Of a stretch of 64,000 nt of DNA, positions 39,018-46,533 are shown one piece after another (the stretch's first letter is position 1; each line of letters opens with the position of its first letter). Under the pieces are notes generated by a model. That model was not told the origin of the DNA and searched no databases. It saw nothing but the letters and a program-made list of their open reading frames with translations. Source of the DNA: Longimicrobium sp. (GTDB lineage: Bacteria > Gemmatimonadota > Gemmatimonadetes > Longimicrobiales > Longimicrobiaceae); assembly GCA_035691085.1 (NCBI GenBank), contig DASSJS010000264.1, positions 375 to 64,374 on the forward strand, in the 5' to 3' direction. The position numbers were made by a program, and so were the translations under genes.

Positions 39018-39206
39018 GGTGGGCTCTCCTGATCGGGAAGATGGTGGGAAATCGCCATCTCATCTCATGTACCACAATAGGATGTTTCATCGCCCGCCGT
39101 TCTGACACCCTCCGCCCCAGCTTCCGCCCCTGCAGGCCGCGACGCGCTCATCCAGCTCTGCTCCTTTGCCGCTCGGATCGGACCCACCTGGGGCGGGCCA
39201 GAACAC

Positions 39207-39238
39207 GAATGCCCCGGCGAGTGATTGCCCGGGCATTC
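39207..39238 (-). terminator. Hairpin (gaatgccccggcg-N6-cccgggcattc type)
   Basis: Lies about 40 nt downstream of the 39277..39462 stop on the minus strand. Same stem family as the hairpins at 39614 and 40164. Confidence 0.5.
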
Positions 39239-39276
39239 TTCATTCATCGCTCCCAAGCTTGCGATGCGGCTGCTGC

Positions 39277-39462
39277 TTATCGTTTCGAATTGCCGATGCA
39301 GTATGCGCAGTTATCGTAGCCGGCGTCATTCGCCGCCTTCTGCGTGTCGTACGGCTTGTCGTTGCCCGCGGCGATGATCTCGTCGATCTGGCACTCGTTC
39401 TTGCCGGTCTTTTCGTTGTCCAGATCGTGGACCTCCTTCTTGCTGGGGCTGGTGTTCGCCAA
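39277..39462 (-). CDS. Small Cys-containing protein with Ada-like Zn-binding pattern; in-frame TAA separates it from an upstream RBS+ATG
   Basis: TTG-start ORF from the track. The pattern C-x26-GYDNCAYC resembles the Ada-type metal-binding pattern (...AGYxPCxxC). GGGAGA-ATG at 39504 opens the same frame but hits TAA at 39475..39477. Confidence 0.4.
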   Translation of the reverse strand: MANTSPSKKEVHDLDNEKTGKNECQIDEIIAAGNDKPYDTQKAANDAGYDNCAYCIGNSKR

Positions 39463-39648
39463 ATACTGCTGGCCTTACATGTTGCCCGTGTACCGTCTGG
39501 CCATGGTCGTCTCCCTTCTGATGCGGTGAAGTGCGGCAGATCAGAAGTGAGACGGACGCAGGTTCAAGACTTTCCCGGACCGTGGAACGAGCTGGCGATC
39601 CGAGGTGGCAAAAGCCCCGGCGCCTGCGCGCCGGGGCATCCTCCTGCG

Positions 39649-39795
39649 TCACGCGGCCAGGCGCCGCACCACCTCCCGCGCGCCGCGCCGGTACACCGTG
39701 AGGCACACCAGCTCGCCCGCGGGGTCGCGCACCTCCCACCAGCGCGTGTCCTTCTTCTTCTGGTAGGTGTAGCCGGCGGGTTCCGTGGCAACCGA
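39649..39795 (-). pseudogene. Start-less second copy (X') of the 57-aa gene X, in frame directly behind the TGA of gene Y
   Basis: It translates to SVATEPAGYTYQKKKDTRWWEVRDPAGELVCLTVYRRGAREVVRRLAA, compared with X = ...ATEPAGYTIQKKKDTRWWDMRDHAGELVCLTVYRRGAREVVRRLAA. There is no in-frame start codon. The distance from the Y stop is a multiple of 3. Confidence 0.55.
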
Positions 39796-40101
39796 TCATT
39801 CGCGATCAGGGAACCTGAAGGCTGCCTCGAGCAGCCGGAGAATCTCAGGGTCCGTGATTCCGGGGAACGACGGCGGGCCGAACGACACTCTGCCAACTGC
39901 ACAGATCTCCGCCAGATCATCCACCATTCTCGCACGGAATTCGGGCCGCATTCGTGCGAGCAGCGCCTCGAACGCGGTCAGGTCCACGCCGGATGTAAGC
40001 CGCGCGCGGTCAGCGTCCGTGAGGCGGAAATCCAGGTCGGGTGTGGCGAGGAAAATCGCTTCGGGTGCTGGCCGCTCCATAACGCTGCTCCGGGTTTCCA
40101 T
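39796..40101 (-). CDS. Hypothetical protein Y (about 100 aa)
   Basis: Internal ATG (METRSSVMERPAPEAIFLATPDLDF...) of ORF 39796..40194. Normal composition. No family recognised. Confidence 0.45.
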   Translation of the reverse strand: METRSSVMERPAPEAIFLATPDLDFRLTDADRARLTSGVDLTAFEALLARMRPEFRARMVDDLAEICAVGRVSFGPPSFPGITDPEILRLLEAAFRFPDRE

Positions 40102-40163
40102 GATCGTGCCGCGTTTCGCAAACGCTGCCGAGCCGGAAGGATACGAAGGGAGAGACAAAAACC

Positions 40164-40196
40164 GAATGCCCCGGCGCCTGCGCTGCCGGGGCATTC
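40164..40196 (-). terminator. Hairpin after gene X (gaatgccccggcg-cctgcgct-gccggggcattc)
   Basis: 11-13-bp stem 8 nt after the X stop on the minus strand. Confidence 0.55.
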
Positions 40197-40203
40197 TCGT
40201 GCG

Positions 40204-40377
40204 TCACGCCGCCAAGCGCCGCACCACCTCTCTCGCGCCACGCCGGTACACCGTGAGGCACACCAGCTCGCCCGCGTGGTCGCGCATGTCCCACCACCGC
40301 GTGTCCTTCTTCTTCTGGATGGTGTAGCCGGCGGGTTCCGTGGCGGCGGGAGCGGCGCCCTGCTGTGCATCGGCCAT
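40204..40377 (-). CDS. Small protein X (57 aa; below the ORF-track cut-off)
   Basis: Found by reading the sequence. GGAGGTG lies 5 nt before the ATG. MADAQQGAAPAATEPAGYTIQKKKDTRWWDMRDHAGELVCLTVYRRGAREVVRRLAA, TGA at 40204..40206, 174 nt in total. Confidence 0.55.
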   Translation of the reverse strand: MADAQQGAAPAATEPAGYTIQKKKDTRWWDMRDHAGELVCLTVYRRGAREVVRRLAA

Positions 40378-40500
40378 CGTGCACCTCCTGGCTGGCTTGA
40401 CCCTCGGCGCCCGGCAGGGCTACCTTTGGCGAGCGGGCGGCCTTCGGGTCGGTTCGCGAATGGGCTGGCCGAGGCTTCTTCGCGGGAGATTCGGCCAGCC

Positions 40501-40570
40501 TTGCTTTTTGCCCTGCTGGATAGAATAATATATCCAATCCGCTGTTCTGTCAAGAGCATTCTATCCAATT
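40501..40570 (+). promoter_or_regulatory. AT-rich promoter/operator region upstream of the HTH gene
   Basis: TTGCTT-N17-AATAAT hexamers. The inverted repeat GGATA-N8-TATCC (40518..40535) overlaps the -10. TATCCAAT occurs twice (40531 and 40562). Confidence 0.45.
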
Positions 40571-40576
40571 CGCGCG

Positions 40577-40801
40577 ATGGATTTCAAGGAAGCCACCGAC
40601 ATCCTGACCCGCCGCATCACCGCCGACGAGATCGCTGAGGCCGCCGGCGTGTCGATCAGCTCGATCGCGCGGGCGCGGTTGGACCCAGCCAGTTCCGCCT
40701 ACCGCTCACCGCCTGAGGACTGGCGATCCGTGCTGGGGCGATTGGCGCGAGAACGTCTTCAAGAGCTGGCAGCATTTGCTGAAGAGATGGAGGCTGCGTA
40801 A
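40577..40801 (+). CDS. Small HTH DNA-binding protein (74 aa), candidate controller of the downstream operon
   Basis: 74-aa ORF. ITADEIAEAAGVSISSIARARL is a helix-turn-helix pattern. It lies 50 nt upstream of and co-directional with the four-gene operon. Confidence 0.65.
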   Translation: MDFKEATDILTRRITADEIAEAAGVSISSIARARLDPASSAYRSPPEDWRSVLGRLARERLQELAAFAEEMEAA

Positions 40802-40851
40802 TTTGAAGGTCCCGCAAACGTTTTCACACTGACAATCGCCCAAGGTCACGA

Positions 40852-41763
40852 ATGCTGTATGATCGCGATATTGTGAGAGTGCGTGAGAAGCTGGAGTTCT
40901 TTAAGAAGGCAGCAATCTGGCCATTGGAATTTAGTTTTGACCCGGAAGGTTGGCTTACAAATTTCCGGGATGACGAACTGGACGTTGCTGTCGCTCTTCT
41001 CGATGGATTTTCATACTTCGCACCGGAGCTTACCAAAAAGATTCTCAGCACTGCTTTCCATCGACTGAGCCACTACGTGGCAGACCCTTCGAGTGCGCCT
41101 GCTGAACGGATAAATCTTTGGGACGGGTTTCGGGAAAGCGTGATTATCACGTATCCGACGGACGAACGACCAGGAGCTACAGACAGCGGGCGCACCTACC
41201 TCCGCAAGGCGAGAACAATTCTTGGGCTAGAGCAAGAGCAGTATATGGATCCAGTTGATGCGCTTTCCGCGCGTATTTTAGATCCGTCTAGACCACTAAT
41301 CTTTCTTGATGATTTCGCCGGAAGTGGGAATCAATTTTGTGAGACTTGGCATAGACCCTACATGATCGCTGGACGGCGTTGGTCTTTCAACTCGGCAGGT
41401 GGTGCAGGACTTTTGGCGTATATTCCGATACTCAGTTCCCACATGGCAGTTCGGAGCATTGATCGATGTGCATCGAACGTCCTGTTTCTACCAGGGCATG
41501 TCGTAGGGGAGGAATATTCCGCCTTCCACCCTGAGTCAGTGCTTTGGCCATCGCCGGAAGTGCAACAGAAAGCCCGAGATGTTATCTACGAGGCGAGCGC
41601 GCGCGCCGGGATTCCACTCGGCGATGGATCCGTGCCGGACGATTGGTGCGGATACCGAGAGTTAGGACTAGCGTTGGCGATTGACGACACCATTCCCGAT
41701 GCCTGCCTAACGATTCTGTACTGGAACGCGAATGGCTGGCAACCGTTGTTCAGGAGGCCGTAA
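40852..41763 (+). CDS. Operon gene A: PRTase-like protein (303 aa)
   Basis: Low-GC ORF. PLIFLDDFAGSGNQF resembles the PRPP-binding loop of type I phosphoribosyltransferases (hhhhDDhxxTGxT). The TAA stop abuts the gene B ATG. Confidence 0.75.
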   Translation: MLYDRDIVRVREKLEFFKKAAIWPLEFSFDPEGWLTNFRDDELDVAVALLDGFSYFAPELTKKILSTAFHRLSHYVADPSSAPAERINLWDGFRESVIITYPTDERPGATDSGRTYLRKARTILGLEQEQYMDPVDALSARILDPSRPLIFLDDFAGSGNQFCETWHRPYMIAGRRWSFNSAGGAGLLAYIPILSSHMAVRSIDRCASNVLFLPGHVVGEEYSAFHPESVLWPSPEVQQKARDVIYEASARAGIPLGDGSVPDDWCGYRELGLALAIDDTIPDACLTILYWNANGWQPLFRRP

Positions 41764-43644
41764 ATGCAAGAGGATGTATTCACCGCTTTACGGGCGGTAT
41801 TCGGTCGGTATAAGGCCGAGTGGCTACGTGGGGATGTTTTTCGTCTGTTCCAGAAACCCGGGTACTTTCCGGAATTGGAAGAGCCGAGGCCGACTGCACT
41901 CATCGGAGGACGGGGGACAGGTAAAACCAGTGTATTAAAGAGCCTTTCCTATAGAGGGCATTTCGAGTTAAGTGGCAAGTCTGCCGCAGCCGCTGTTAAC
42001 GCCCCGTACGTCGGACTGTATTGGTGCATCGATTCTAACCGGGTTACAGCTTTTGCTGGGCCTGAGCTCGAGCCCAAGCAGTGGATAAGGCTGTTTGCAC
42101 ACTATGTTAACTTGGAAATCGTAGCGATGTTTTGTGAGTATGTCCTTTGGTTTGAAAACACGACTGGAACAACTGTCACGGTGCCACAATCCAGACTAGC
42201 GAAAGTTGGGACTGCTCTCCACATCACGGGTGCGGCGACGATAAACGAGCTCGCGTCTAAGGTGAGTGAAGCGCTGGTTACTTTGGAAGCTAGCATCAAC
42301 TCCGTTGCGGATCGCGCAAATGCCCCGCTGAGCATGCAAAGCGTGCCGATCGAGTACTTAGCGGAGGCCCTGATTTCAACTGATGCCTTCAGTGGAAAGG
42401 TTTTTTACATAGTTGTTGACGAATTTGAGAACTTGGACGAAACGCAACAATCTCTGTTCAACACGCTCATCAAGCATGGCCGTGACAAGTTTGCGTTCAA
42501 GATTGGAATGAAAGACTCGGGATGGCGGACCAAAGCCACCCTTAATGGTGAAATCTTGACGCATCCGGCAGACTACGACCTGATCGATCTATCGGAACGT
42601 TTTGGTAATGGTCAGTACCCGAGTTTTGCTCGTGAAGTATGTGAGGCTCGGTTGGCTCACGCCTTTGTAAGGGCGGGTCTTGTAAACATGCCTCCGGAGA
42701 TTCCCTCCTATTTTCAAGACCTTGCGGTGGATGAAGAGGCTCGACTGCTGGGGTTAGGTCGGCGGATCGCCCCAATTCGCGCGAGTGTTATGAAGGACCC
42801 TAACGCCTCCGAGCTGTTGAACGATCTCTCGGATCTCGACCTGTACTACCTCCACCGGCGGGCAGAGAGTGAGAGTGTATCTTTGACCGAGATCTTGGCT
42901 GAATACAGTTTGAATCCCAAAGGCTATCTATCTAGCTACAGAGAAAACTACCGACAGTCCTTGCTATTTACGATAAGCGAGCACTCCGGGAAAGGCCTGC
43001 AAAAGTACTATTCAGGATGGAATACCCTCACAAAGGTATCCGGCGGGAACATTCGTTATTTAGTGGAAATCGTGGAGCGGGCATTTGAACTCCACCGCAC
43101 TACAAGTAACGACATTCGCAAGGCTGTATCAGCTCGCGATCAAACAGAGGCTTGTATTGCTGTGGGACGCAAGTACGTGCAAGAAGTACAGGCTTTAGAC
43201 CCACAGGGACACAGGCTCACATTCCTGCTACTTGGCCTCGGTCGTCTGCTGAATCTTCTAGCGCGCCATTCTCTTGGGAAGCAGCCAGATACAACGTCAT
43301 TTGTACTTGCGCGTCCCACTTCTCAGGAGATAGCCCAAGAACTTGATGATCTGTTGCGTATCGCGGTGATGCATCAGGTACTGCGGAAGTGGCCAGCGAC
43401 TAAATTGACGAGTCACACCGAAGCGAAGGAATCCGAGTATTCTGTGCATCCAATCTTTGCTGCGTTCTTTGTATTCCCTTATCAGAAGAAACGTCGGATC
43501 AGGATTTCGGGTGAGGATCTACTACTGCTCTCTGTGGACCTGAAGGCTGGGTTGGCGGCGGTACTGAATGCTGTCGGACAGCCCGATGATCCTACTGAGG
43601 CTCTTCCACGGCAACTGAGTCTTTTCGAGGCAGCATATGAGTGA
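41764..43644 (+). CDS. Operon gene B: P-loop NTPase, ORC/Cdc6-like AAA+/STAND-like (626 aa)
   Basis: Walker A LIGGRGTGKTSV, Walker B VFYIVVDEFENL, and a long helical C-terminal region. Translationally coupled on both sides. Confidence 0.8.
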   Translation: MQEDVFTALRAVFGRYKAEWLRGDVFRLFQKPGYFPELEEPRPTALIGGRGTGKTSVLKSLSYRGHFELSGKSAAAAVNAPYVGLYWCIDSNRVTAFAGPELEPKQWIRLFAHYVNLEIVAMFCEYVLWFENTTGTTVTVPQSRLAKVGTALHITGAATINELASKVSEALVTLEASINSVADRANAPLSMQSVPIEYLAEALISTDAFSGKVFYIVVDEFENLDETQQSLFNTLIKHGRDKFAFKIGMKDSGWRTKATLNGEILTHPADYDLIDLSERFGNGQYPSFAREVCEARLAHAFVRAGLVNMPPEIPSYFQDLAVDEEARLLGLGRRIAPIRASVMKDPNASELLNDLSDLDLYYLHRRAESESVSLTEILAEYSLNPKGYLSSYRENYRQSLLFTISEHSGKGLQKYYSGWNTLTKVSGGNIRYLVEIVERAFELHRTTSNDIRKAVSARDQTEACIAVGRKYVQEVQALDPQGHRLTFLLLGLGRLLNLLARHSLGKQPDTTSFVLARPTSQEIAQELDDLLRIAVMHQVLRKWPATKLTSHTEAKESEYSVHPIFAAFFVFPYQKKRRIRISGEDLLLLSVDLKAGLAAVLNAVGQPDDPTEALPRQLSLFEAAYE

Positions 43645-44620
43645 ACGGATTCTCTTGCCGGTTTGCACTGGCCGCTTCACCTCGCGGGCCTCCTTCAACG
43701 TGCGTCCTGGCGCGGTATACATCTACGGAGAGTCGCTTGAGAATCGCAGCCACCTTCCGCAGAGTTGGATGGAAACGCAGGATTGCCACTTTTTTCGAGT
43801 GGAAGAACAGGAATATGAGCGTTTTGCGTTCACAGTTGCTGGGCGGGAATATCGCCTGCGCAGTCGCATCGATGTAGAGGCTTTCATAGATCACATTCTG
43901 GCAGTTTCCCCAGTCGTCTATGTAGACATCACAGGACTTAGTCACCATGTCTGGGCGCCCTTGATTTCGGAAATAGTGCTAAGGGTGGCCCGATTCCCAA
44001 ATGCGGGCATTCAATTAGCCGCAGTGTATGTAGAACCCGTGCATTATACCAAGTCGAAAGTCCCGCGTCCGGGCGACATCTTCGCACTGAGTGATAAATT
44101 GCATGGTATACGCCCGTTACCCGGGCTTGTCCGTCTTCGGCGACATGAGAGTGACAAGGCGATGATTGTAGCGCTTCTCGGATTCGAAGGGTGGCGCTTC
44201 GATGCAGTGCTTGCGAAGCTTGAACCGGACGCTGGGACTGTTGTACCGGTGATCGGTGTTCCTGGATTTCGCGCGGAGTACCCGTTCTACACCCTCGAAG
44301 GCAACATAATTCCGCTTGAGCGAGATGGTAACTGGACTCGGCGGAAGTTCGCGACGGCGAATGATCCTTTCGAAGTTTACCACATTCTCGAAATGCTGCA
44401 GACTCGACACCCTGAGACCCTTCTCAGGGTTGCATTGGTCGGGACGAAGCCCCATGCTCTCGGTGCCGTTATCTTCCATGCGGTGCACCCGGGGATGAGT
44501 GAACTCATCTACGATAACCCAGTACGGAGTGCCGGACGGACCGACTCTGACCGAACGCTCTTGGAGTACGACGTCTCCTCGTTCCTTGGGATGATGAACG
44601 ACCCAAGCTTCGCCGCATAA
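43637..44620 (+). CDS. Operon gene C: unknown protein with alternating beta/alpha (Rossmann-like) pattern (327 aa)
   Basis: The start overlaps the gene B stop by 8 nt. Strand-like segments VVYVDITGLSHH, AMIVALLGFEG, VVPVIGVPGF and LRVALVGTKPHALG. No catalytic motif recognised. Confidence 0.7.
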   Translation: MSERILLPVCTGRFTSRASFNVRPGAVYIYGESLENRSHLPQSWMETQDCHFFRVEEQEYERFAFTVAGREYRLRSRIDVEAFIDHILAVSPVVYVDITGLSHHVWAPLISEIVLRVARFPNAGIQLAAVYVEPVHYTKSKVPRPGDIFALSDKLHGIRPLPGLVRLRRHESDKAMIVALLGFEGWRFDAVLAKLEPDAGTVVPVIGVPGFRAEYPFYTLEGNIIPLERDGNWTRRKFATANDPFEVYHILEMLQTRHPETLLRVALVGTKPHALGAVIFHAVHPGMSELIYDNPVRSAGRTDSDRTLLEYDVSSFLGMMNDPSFAA

Positions 44621-44630
44621 CGAGTTCTAG

Positions 44631-45773
44631 ATGGCCACTCTTCCGAGTAGAGTGATGATCGACGCCCACTACACGCCGCCCTCGATCGCACGAGAACTTA
44701 TCAGCCACGTTGGTCGGCTGCTTCCGGGCTCTATTGCCGACTTCGCGGCTGGGGGCGGCGAGTTGCTCCTACAAGCTGCGAATAGGTGGCCGAGACGCGA
44801 ATTCGCTGCTTGCGATATCTCGCGCCAAGCTGTGGCCAGACTTTCCAGGGAACGACCCGAGTGGAAAATCGGCACGTGTGATTTCTATTCTTCGCGTTCG
44901 CGGGCAGCTTCGCGGGTTCTTCGTTCTGTGCGGGGCGATGTGGCGCTGTGTCTCGCAAACCCTCCGTTTTCCTATCGTGGTGGTGAGCAGTGGCGAGTTG
45001 TTCCGGCAACAGGGACGTCTCTTTTCTGTGGTCCAGCGATGGCATTCCTCCTGAATGCCGTTGAATATCTCCGACCGGGTGGACAATTGGTGGCCATCGT
45101 CCCTGCCAATGCCCTTAGGAGTGCGAAGGACGAGGCGGCAGTCAATTTTCTGAACGAGTCGGGGACGCTAAAACTACTCGACAGTTATCCCAGAGGAGCG
45201 TTTCCAAACTGCACTTCTCAAACTGTAAGTATTAGTTACCACCGCGACAGGGTATCGCGCGAAGTTGAGGTTGTTGGGAAAGAGGTTCGCGCCGTAAGGG
45301 TGGAGGTTGAACTTACTCGGGGAAGCACCCCGATGCACTCCGTTCTGCCTCTCGGCGCTGGGCACATACCTGTCGTGCACACGTCAGATCTCCGGAACAA
45401 CACTGTGCAGCGCCCTAATCATGGGGTCACACGGGCTAATAACGTTGTTCGTGGTCCCGCAGTGTTAGTTCCTCGAGTCGGGAAGCCACAAAGCGACAAA
45501 GTTGCAATTTACACAGCCGACGATCCGGTCGTACTGTCCGACTGCGTATTTGCGATTAGGTGTGCATCTGCAGGCGACGCTCTATACGTTCTAAACATCC
45601 TCTTGGCGAATTGGGTAATCCTTTGTCGAGTATATCACGGAACGTGCGCACCATATATCACGATTAAGGACTTGGTGGGAGCATTACATGGCATGGGAAT
45701 ACACGTGTGTGCCCGTTCGTCAGAGGTGCATAGCAACAACCTGCAACAAATCGCAGCGACGGTGGTCATCTAG
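44631..45773 (+). CDS. Operon gene D: gamma-class N6-adenine DNA methyltransferase (380 aa)
   Basis: Motif I IADFAAGGGELL (AdoMet binding) precedes motif IV LANPPFSY (NPPF/Y). The C-terminal about 180 aa are plausibly the target-recognition domain. Confidence 0.85.
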   Translation: MATLPSRVMIDAHYTPPSIARELISHVGRLLPGSIADFAAGGGELLLQAANRWPRREFAACDISRQAVARLSRERPEWKIGTCDFYSSRSRAASRVLRSVRGDVALCLANPPFSYRGGEQWRVVPATGTSLFCGPAMAFLLNAVEYLRPGGQLVAIVPANALRSAKDEAAVNFLNESGTLKLLDSYPRGAFPNCTSQTVSISYHRDRVSREVEVVGKEVRAVRVEVELTRGSTPMHSVLPLGAGHIPVVHTSDLRNNTVQRPNHGVTRANNVVRGPAVLVPRVGKPQSDKVAIYTADDPVVLSDCVFAIRCASAGDALYVLNILLANWVILCRVYHGTCAPYITIKDLVGALHGMGIHVCARSSEVHSNNLQQIAATVVI

Positions 45774-45852
45774 GCATGTCGGGAATCCTGACGCGGTTCA
45801 ACGCGGTGTCGCGCAGCCCCATTCCGACGGAGAAACCCGCGCCAACTGTTCG

Positions 45853-46206
45853 CTACACGCCGCCGCCCACACGCTCGTAGCGGTAGCGCACCGTCCGCTG
45901 GGGCGTGAAGACGAGGCGCTCGAGCCGCACCTCGTTTCCCGAGAAGACGCCCTTCTGCTGCTCGGAATGGCCAGTCTCGGCGTCGAACAGGTTGATCGTG
46001 TCGCCGCAGGGGCCGCGCAGCTCGAAGCGCCCGCCGCCGTAGTGCATCCACGACGTGACGGGCGGCGGATCATCGTCGCACCAAGCGCGCGCCTCGCTCT
46101 GCTGGGCGTAGGTGCCATCCGCGCGCAGCGTGACCACATTGCGGATGAGGAACGACGTGCACGTCCGGCCGGCGAGCCACGCCTCGCCGACGACACGTTC
46201 ACACAT
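45853..46206 (-). CDS. Hypothetical protein (117 aa)
   Basis: Only the C-terminal part (MCERVVGEAWLAGRTC...RYRYERVGGGV) of ORF 45853..46902 has protein-like composition. GGAAAG lies upstream of the ATG at 46206. An alternative ATG is at 46263. Confidence 0.45.
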   Translation of the reverse strand: MCERVVGEAWLAGRTCTSFLIRNVVTLRADGTYAQQSEARAWCDDDPPPVTSWMHYGGGRFELRGPCGDTINLFDAETGHSEQQKGVFSGNEVRLERLVFTPQRTVRYRYERVGGGV

Positions 46207-46356
46207 CCCGCTTTCCGTTCTGTTCGTCACAATGTATCGTGGCTGGTCCGCCGTACACTGCATCCCGGGGGCACATCGGGCACTCTCTTCTGCCGGCCTC
46301 TGGCATCGGCCGCGAACGCCGCGGACCTGCGCATTCACCATTCCAGTGAGGACGCC

Positions 46357-46533
46357 ATGGAAAAGCTGAGGCTGAACGTGGAGGAACTGACGGTGCAGTC
46401 GTTCGCCACGGACGATGCGGACGCGCAGATGGGCACCGTGCAGGGGCAGGAGGTGGCGGCGCCGAGCGCCTTCTACACGCGTTGCTGTCAGACGAACGAA
46501 GTCCAGTCGTGCCCGGCCCGCTGCACCCCGTGA
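46357..46533 (+). CDS. RiPP-precursor-like peptide P3 (58 aa, 4 Cys)
   Basis: Internal ATG of ORF 45688..46533 with GAGGA upstream. MEKLRLNVEELTVQSFATDDADAQMGTVQG is followed by QEVAAPSAFYTRCCQTNEVQSCPARCTP. Confidence 0.6.
   Translation: MEKLRLNVEELTVQSFATDDADAQMGTVQGQEVAAPSAFYTRCCQTNEVQSCPARCTP

Follow-up and report, generated by a model that had tools for sequence, protein, structure and literature searches.

Among the nucleotide sensors of prokaryotic immunity, CARF domains are understood best and, to our knowledge, nearly all of the mechanistic work on them concerns cyclic oligoadenylates made by Cas10. The closest described systems are the CARF sensors of type III CRISPR-Cas (Csm6/Csx1, Can1 and Can2/Card1), together with the stand-alone ring nucleases and regulators Crn1, Csx15/16/20 and Crn4, in which a CARF domain lacking an effector domain acts on, or binds, the nucleotide messenger. 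Here we report on gene C, located at 43637-44620 in a 64,000-nucleotide stretch of Longimicrobium sp. DNA (assembly GCA_035691085.1, contig DASSJS010000264.1, positions 375 to 64,374 of the forward strand), which as a whole is called the window and in which all positions are given; it lies in a cassette with gene A, encoding a phosphoribosyltransferase (PRTase), gene B, encoding an AAA+ ATPase, and gene D, encoding a methylase. As in the type III sensors, a Rossmann-like six-stranded core with a hairpin of strands 5 and 6 is predicted in C, an invariant lysine is placed right after strand 4, in a GTK that resembles the DLTGGTK/DLTSGTK of Thermus CARF proteins, and the CARF domain of Can2 is a structural match; two CARF-like lobes in a single C chain would also recall Can1. 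In contrast to those sensors, C has no fused nuclease or effector domain, no Cas10 or CRISPR is found nearby, its strand 1 ends in E184 and not in Ser/Thr, and no homology between its two lobes is detectable. With Crn1, Csx15/16/20 and Crn4 it shares the absence of an effector domain and the predicted nucleotide ligand, but those proteins act downstream of Cas10, whereas C resides in a PRTase/ATPase/methylase operon and carries an extra conserved N-terminal lobe. Being stand-alone, with this additional lobe, a glutamate at strand 1 and a PRTase/AAA+/methylase context, C differs from the characterised CARF proteins, and because no cyclase is present it stands outside the CRISPR-type and CBASS-type ancillary modules. 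C is most likely a small-molecule sensing subunit of the CARF family, and we consider it rather probable that A-B-C-D is a horizontally mobile conflict system of four genes, directed against phages or plasmids, in which C serves as the regulatory subunit that senses a ligand.

43637..44620, plus strand: gene C, ATG start, TAA stop, 327 amino acids; stand-alone CARF6-family protein with two predicted alpha/beta lobes
43637..43644, plus strand: overlap of the B stop and the C start, 8 nucleotides; ATGAGTGA contains the C start codon and the TGA stop of B

The original prediction, made by eye from the DNA and its translations, had assigned C to no known family, and this has to be corrected, since the protein is catalogued as CARF6 in PADLOC-DB, though it goes unnamed by Pfam, NCBIfam and RefSeq. 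The PADLOC model PDLC01913 ("CARF6--CARF_CARF_CARF") matches C with E = 3.8e-90, residues 7-317 aligning with profile positions 5-303 of 305, and four more CARF6 models of the same collection match as well, residues 175-295 being common to all five. Judged by these profiles, C is a member of an already catalogued family and not of a new one. No Pfam or NCBIfam model was found for gene C, the RefSeq label of its relatives is "hypothetical protein", and A, B and C are all annotated there as "hypothetical"; curated models already exist for the CARF6, PRTase-CE and ORC-CDC6-like families, and the kind is already computationally catalogued. Pfam, NCBIfam and PADLOC detect no enzymatic or effector domain in C; in particular none of them matches PD-(D/E)xK, HNH, GIY-YIG, PLD, TIR or SIR2, in agreement with the earlier search by eye for such signatures. 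A sequence search of the PDB with C, as a single sequence or as a family profile, returned nothing. The family is large, with 951 homologues at E <= 1e-3 and a profile that matches 1,039 clusters at 50% identity across many bacterial phyla, so that gene C is far from a chance open reading frame (ORF), and nearly all members have 300-330 amino acids, among them the best 150 representatives (about 300-330), in which zero fusions were seen.

The predicted fold points in the same direction as the profiles. The AlphaFold2 model of C, built on 27 homologues (mean predicted local distance difference test score, pLDDT, of 83; predicted template modelling score of 0.88), displays two Rossmann-like alpha/beta lobes; the four segments quoted in the original prediction, which had described alternating strand-like and helical segments, are located at residues 93, 175, 202 and 263 and are strand-loop-helix units in the model. 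Its suggestion of a CARF- or Rossmann-like fold was likewise correct, given the CARF6 profile match, the Rossmann-like lobes and the match to the CARF domain of Can2. Residue invariance was judged over 27 diverse homologues.

43637..44041, plus strand: N-terminal lobe of C, about residues 1-135; invariant E35, R37, W44, D97, T99, G100 and H103; high pLDDT in both models
43925..43945, plus strand: D97-I-T-G-L-S-H103 motif, after an N-lobe beta strand; D97, T99, G100 and H103 invariant
44153..44581, plus strand: C-terminal lobe of C with the predicted CARF core, about residues 173-315; b1-a1-b2-a2-b3-a3-b4-a4-b5-b6 with a terminal hairpin (DSSP of the model)
44441..44467, plus strand: G269-T-K-P-H-A-L-G-A277 motif, directly after strand 4 of the CARF lobe (262-268); G269, T270, K271, P272, H273 and G276 invariant

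The CARF core has been defined as six-stranded and Rossmann-like, its strands 5 and 6 being paired in a beta-hairpin (PMC4012209), and residues 175-312 of C fit this definition in the predicted structure, with strands at 175-181, 202-207, 239-241, 262-268, 288-292 and 295-297/305-312 and helices at 185-195, 215-228, 244-257 and 271-283. The C-terminal lobe is accordingly predicted by these tools to be a CARF domain. In CARF domains a polar residue, typically Ser or Thr, ends strand 1, and [DN]x[ST]xxx[RK] often follows strand 4, both features being frequent and not obligatory (PMC4012209). In the C-terminal lobe strand 1 ends in G182-F-E184-G185, in which the glutamate is invariant and Ser/Thr is absent, and the signature after strand 4 is reduced to G-T-K; K271, the conserved basic residue of CARF domains, is invariant in 27/27 homologues, and the GTKPH region is aligned by hhalign with GTKPMAAG of a TIGR02710 CARF protein. 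In the N-terminal lobe S33 follows the first core strand (27-31) and D97-x-T99-x-x-x-H103 has the form of the CARF signature, with histidine replacing Lys/Arg; hhalign pairs this motif with the DLTGGTK of Thermus CARF proteins at non-significant levels (P 0.004-0.09). Motifs resembling the CARF post-strand-4 motif are borne by both lobes, and the N-terminal lobe could be a further CARF lobe in degenerate form, in which case C would resemble Can1. When the model was compared with the PDB by Foldseek, the CARF domain of Can2 (8bao_B) was matched with a probability of 1.00 and E = 3.1e-3 over 123 columns, with a root-mean-square deviation (RMSD) of 3.2 A, and this was the sole match combining a high probability with a low RMSD; it sits on the C-terminal lobe, because it disappears when the N-terminal lobe is searched alone.

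Other folds were considered and set aside. KaiC and RecA, at the top of the Foldseek ranking, were rejected on a template modelling score of about 0.2, an RMSD of about 21 A and the absence from C of a GxxxxGK[ST] P-loop; the KaiC matches reflect the presence of two tandem alpha/beta domains and not homology. The VDITG sequence singled out in the original prediction is a real motif, and the invariance of D97, T99 and G100 in the 27 homologues argues that it is functional, but the proposed likeness to the DxTG of HAD and P-type enzymes is not borne out: whereas the nucleophile motif of a HAD fold (DxDx[TV] or DKTG) ends strand 1 and is accompanied by motifs II-IV, DITG follows an internal strand and is then followed by a helix, no HAD Pfam model matches, and no HAD structure is found among the top 50 Foldseek matches of either model of C. 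TIR-like and macro folds for the N-terminal lobe stayed at chance level (probability <= 0.44; E > 0.3 for TIR), periplasmic-binding-protein-like folds were rejected or at chance level, and the viral structures of BFVD gave no significant match to C.

Rossmann-like domains bind nucleotides at the C-terminal ends of their beta strands. In the model of C the invariant polar residues (S33/E35/R37, D97-T99-G100-H103, E133, E184/R187, N242, G269-T-K-P-H273 and D293/R297/R301-T302) lie on loops at the C-terminal strand ends of both lobes. We read C as a ligand-binding regulator because it has no effector domain, belongs by its profile to a superfamily of sensors and displays these invariant residues on the predicted nucleotide-binding face; when no effector domain is fused to it, a protein of the CARF type more probably serves as a ligand sensor or a regulator.

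The reading frame itself agrees with the original prediction, which had described a protein of 327 residues encoded at 43637-44620, overlapping B by 8 nucleotides and without signal peptide or transmembrane segment. In fact, the Kyte-Doolittle maximum is 1.45 (19-residue window), with no transmembrane segment in C, and its N-terminus does not have the appearance of a signal peptide. In the NCBI record of the Longimicrobium sp. metagenome-assembled genome the product of gene C has only 283 amino acids (P0001), the start being placed 44 codons late (43637-43768 left out); homologues align from residues 1-8 onwards and share P8, F20, Y28, S33, E35, R37 and W44, and because residues 8-44 are conserved the 327-residue start is the better call. 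A Shine-Dalgarno-like GAGG is found at 43627-43630, 6 nucleotides 5' of the ATG. The overlap of B and C, which indicates translational coupling as far as can be read from the DNA, recurs on Moraxella pNP7-2 as annotated by RefSeq and among the ORFs of a cassette on a Klebsiella plasmid, making three distant examples with the window. Scans for promoters and terminators remained at background level.

The loci sampled number 160, of which 80 are from genomes of many phyla and 80 from metagenomes. Next to C in the 80 genomes, A was detected in 74, B in 76 and D in 76, and the gene order D-A-B-C was observed in a few loci. Four of the genome loci gave no match to D by tblastn; in one of them (L011) a divergent N6 methylase lies upstream of the cassette, and no methylase was found in the downstream ORFs tested of L030 and L078. 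The metagenome scan used B as bait and is hence unbiased toward C; counted over loci with enough sequence, C was directly downstream of B in 60/61, while A was found in 67/68 and D in 49/51. The original prediction had held that its proposal would be contradicted by A-B-D loci from which C is absent, and C accompanies B in all but one of these loci, which makes it a core gene of the cassette. The recurrent neighbours of C are limited to A, B, D and a dUTPase.

Since the original prediction saw no other nuclease in the operon, it had named C as the best candidate for the toxic, restricting or signalling component; as a toxic or restricting effector, C would be a novel nuclease, NADase or similar enzyme. 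C is indeed an obligate and highly conserved member of the operon, its N-terminal lobe has no assigned function, and weak echoes of TIR and macro folds (probability <= 0.44) were seen. Those echoes are nevertheless at chance level, C is matched by none of the profiles for nucleases, TIR, SIR2 or PLD, the superfamily that it does match is one of sensors, and the claim fails at its premise, as gene A matches PRTase-CE (PF24390, E = 2.9e-39) and retains an intact active site. With a recognised conflict effector already encoded by A, the ground for seeing C as the effector is removed, and we regard such a role for C as highly improbable.

40852..41763, plus strand: gene A, PRTase-CE phosphoribosyltransferase, predicted effector; Pfam PF24390 E = 2.9e-39, PADLOC PRTase_III-A E = 3e-13
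41296-41334, plus strand: phosphoribosyl pyrophosphate (PRPP) loop of gene A, LIFLDDFAGSGNQ; D153, D154, G157, G159 and Q161 invariant in 14 homologues
41764..43644, plus strand: gene B, ORC-CDC6-like AAA+ ATPase; Pfam PF24389 E = 2.6e-114
41905-41931, plus strand: Walker A of gene B, GGRGTGKTS; Walker residues invariant
42403-42429, plus strand: Walker B of gene B, FYIVVDEFE; Walker residues invariant
44631..45773, plus strand: gene D, S-adenosylmethionine-dependent N-methyltransferase, N6-adenine type; Pfam MTS and N6_Mtase, PADLOC mad2 (E = 2e-13) and MTase_II
44736-44762, plus strand: motif I of gene D, DFAAGGGE
44958-44969, plus strand: motif IV of gene D, NPPF; invariant

The loop DD-x2-G-x-G-x-Q of gene A is invariant, and the PADLOC PRTase_III-A models that it matches are presumably, by their name, those of the retron type III-A PRTase. 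ShosTA, too, pairs its PRTase with a Rossmann-like (DprA-type) partner. The effector slot of the cassette would be filled by A, a PRTase-CE. In retron type III, ShosTA and Ophion it is a PRTase that acts as the defence effector or toxin (preprint 10.1101/2025.09.30.679545). The role predicted for A is that of the phosphoribosyltransferases of retron type III-A, ShosTA, PsyrTA and Ophion (OpnC), but in the present cassette the PRTase is accompanied by an ORC/Cdc6-like AAA+ ATPase, a CARF6 protein and a methylase, and no reverse transcriptase, radical-SAM enzyme or helicase is present in the cassette. "CE" stands for conflict effector, which in PUA-Cal-HAD is found with a nucleotide-sensing partner (PMC12871103). 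In that PUA-Calcineurin-CE-HAD system a nucleotide-depleting conflict effector is likewise placed under a nucleotide-sensing domain, and the cue originates from DNA methylation (PMC12871103); its sensor (PUA) and effector folds are, however, unrelated to those described here, and it has been proven experimentally, whereas the system described here is a prediction. Gene D appears, from a motif order judged by eye, to be a gamma-type N-methyltransferase, and its orthologues are annotated as N-6 DNA methylases; in the Klebsiella version of D a target-recognition region resembles type I specificity subunits. An N6-adenine methylase and an ATPase in a mobile island are also found in BREX, DISARM and MADS, and D matches PADLOC mad2, but none of the core genes of these systems is present in the cassette and its predicted output is directed to nucleotides and not to DNA. 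By their invariant motifs A, B and D are all judged to be catalytically intact.

The distribution and surroundings of the cassette suggest that it moves between genomes. In the window it coincides with a stretch of low guanine-plus-cytosine (GC) content, which by its base composition indicates a horizontally acquired island.

40800..45800, no strand assigned: low-GC island with A-B-C-D; GC 0.52-0.58, compared with about 0.70-0.75 over most of the window

The window yielded neither a tRNA gene nor an integrase, and no convincing direct repeats were found to flank the island. Homologues of C are carried by 148 plasmids, 128 of them from Klebsiella and 131/148 conjugative, the Klebsiella copies showing, among the matches listed, 26% identity over 92% coverage. 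On the Klebsiella pneumoniae plasmid NZ_CP070089.1 (L163 2789-7891) a distant subfamily of the cassette has the order D-A-B-C and adjoins repA; its B is missing from the PLSDB gene table, yet the ORF is intact. Plasmids of Paraburkholderia and Burkholderia (L165 4221-7867 and L166 3981-7681) carry A-B-C with no recognisable methylase, and the methylase may therefore not be strictly required; these two cassettes are surrounded by genes for a DUF4433 and macro-domain pair (DarT/DarG-like), a PDDEXK nuclease, HNH, DUF262 and integrase. Among 148 flanking ORFs from 73 genomes we observed resolvases, integrases, transposases, Septu PtuA/PtuB, type I methylases and AbiEi, besides housekeeping genes, and type I restriction-modification is found among the genes neighbouring the cassette. 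In IMG/VR a single contig carries gene C. This setting bears on another explanation, in which the cassette is a mobile, non-immune pathway for nucleotide or DNA modification (epigenetic or hypermodification) and C a nucleotide-binding accessory. A methylase, a PRTase and a dUTPase could together form a route for base or nucleotide modification, many flanking genes are ordinary housekeeping genes, and some Burkholderia cassettes have no methylase. On the other hand, curation treats the family of A as a conflict effector, one similar to the PRTases of retrons, and the patchy distribution across phyla, the low-GC island, the carriage on plasmids and the recurrence of defence and mobile neighbours all speak against it, for which reason we find this explanation improbable.

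Another recurrent feature of these loci is a dUTPase. Two unrelated families adjoin the cassette in 27/80 genome loci, the trimeric one (PF00692) in 18 and the dimeric one (PF08761) in 9, and a dUTPase is also found in 13/80 metagenome loci and on a Moraxella plasmid. The orientation of the trimeric type varies, while the dimeric type is on the cassette strand and directly upstream of A wherever its position is assignable. Examples, in the coordinates of the respective loci, are the following.

L001 1634-2086, minus strand: dUTPase
L003 8969-9421, plus strand: dUTPase
L010 9942-10496, plus strand: dUTPase
L006 3672-4436, plus strand: dUTPase
L007 4512-5201, plus strand: dUTPase
L164 2510-3175, plus strand: dUTPase

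Since analogous enzymes have been recruited, we argue that dUTP/dUMP chemistry matters to the system; this suggests a functional link between the dUTPase and the cassette, and the recurrence fits a mode of action on the nucleotide pool. The cassette of the window itself has no dUTPase.

Several further elements were observed around the cassette in the window. Just 5' of it, a repeat region (39190-40380) contains two 160-nucleotide copies, at 39630-39789 and 40185-40344, which are 92% identical and each preceded by a GC-rich palindrome (AATGCCCCGGCGCCTGCGC..GCCGGGGCAT), and three such hairpins occur, near 39208, 39611 and 40165. Within the repeat lie a small ORF (57 amino acids, minus strand, 40204-40377) and a partial paralogue that is 90% identical, and the 490-residue ORF on the plus strand at 39166-40638 is probably spurious. 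A search of Rfam with the 38.8-46.2 kb region gave no match. Directly 5' of gene A, on the same strand, lies an ORF of 74 residues (40577-40801) in which a helix-turn-helix is possible by eye; tblastn over the 160 loci from genomes and metagenomes did not find it beside the cassette, and it may therefore be a local regulator or not a gene. On the other side, an ORF of 281 residues (45688-46533) overlaps the end of D and is not conserved with the cassette; its only match, to the NCBIfam pinensin lanthipeptide leader, falls below threshold (E = 3.8e-4; 20.3 bits, where 24 is the cut-off) and is probably due to chance.

Taking C as a ligand-sensing regulator, we hypothesize that it would bind a nucleotide-derived small molecule in the cleft between its two lobes and that, made in step with B by means of the overlapping stop and start codons, it would gate the ATPase/effector module. 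The PRTase-CE might then be released onto the nucleotide pool, and replication of the invader would stop. The methylase D probably marks self DNA or, alternatively, creates methylated nucleotides that would serve as the cue, for which there is a precedent in PUA-Cal-HAD, triggered by m6-dAMP (PMC12871103).

A number of results weigh against this proposal. CARF models other than those of clade 6 give no match to C, even at E <= 10. When each half of C was compared by hhalign with Thermus Csm6, with a TIGR02710 CARF protein, for which the search meant to deepen the profile gave just 12 sequences, and with a 636-residue protein that is presumably Can1, the alignments to these bona fide CARF proteins were non-significant (P 0.002-0.09), though the right motifs were aligned. 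The same program gave no signal of internal duplication between the N-terminal and C-terminal halves, so that an origin from tandem CARF domains is a conjecture. Foldseek with the N-terminal lobe (residues 1-172) modelled alone reached at best E = 0.06 in the PDB, with no CARF among the matches, and the match of the whole model to Can2 has a modest E (3e-3) and ranks below the KaiC matches of poor geometry. No signal-making enzyme of the Cas10 or CD-NTase type is present in the operon or in the 160 loci, and tblastn with Thermus Cas10/Csm1, Cmr2, Csm3 and Cas1, a search of low sensitivity, found no match in the window or in those loci. No published description of the cassette and no experimental work on it were found, the papers likeliest to describe it being outside the reach of the search. 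Finally, the invariant acidic residues E35, D97, E133, E184, E289 and D293 exceed the needs of a pure binding site and leave room for catalysis.

This last point leads to the possibility that C is an enzyme acting on a nucleotide signal or metabolite, either as an off-switch of the ring-nuclease or sponge kind or as a processing step between the PRTase and the methylase. In both lobes the set of invariant polar or acidic residues is unusually dense, each of the neighbouring genes (for the PRTase, the methylase and, frequently, the dUTPase) encodes an enzyme of nucleotide chemistry, and CARF proteins that stand alone and lack an effector domain are in many cases ring nucleases, Csx15 and Crn4 being examples. 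However, neither the profile libraries nor Foldseek recognise a catalytic family in C, and there is no signal synthase whose product would need to be degraded. An enzymatic role therefore seems unlikely to us, and a regulatory subunit that senses a ligand remains the reading that we prefer.

As to the nature of this ligand, a symmetric cyclic oligoadenylate is unlikely. We may speculate that C is a CARF sensor independent of any cyclase, in which an asymmetric pocket between two lobes would recognise a non-cyclic, invasion-specific nucleotide and thereby link the status of methylation or of the nucleotide pool, via B, to the destruction of nucleotides by the PRTase; this more specific version is tentative, and we hold it to be doubtful. 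The candidate ligands could then be derived from the methylome (of the m6dAMP type), from dU or from PRPP, and the dUTPase could be part of the circuit.

The family of C represents a widespread CARF clade, with about 1,000 clusters at 50% identity in many phyla and a presence on 128 Klebsiella plasmids, and in the loci sampled its companions are a PRTase effector and an AAA+ ATPase, and no cyclase. Identification of the ligand of C would reveal what a CARF domain senses when no dedicated messenger synthase is present, and would also reveal how a phosphoribosyltransferase serves as an immune effector. If C is truly a sensor independent of a cyclase, CARF signalling beyond CRISPR and CBASS would have an input logic of a new kind.

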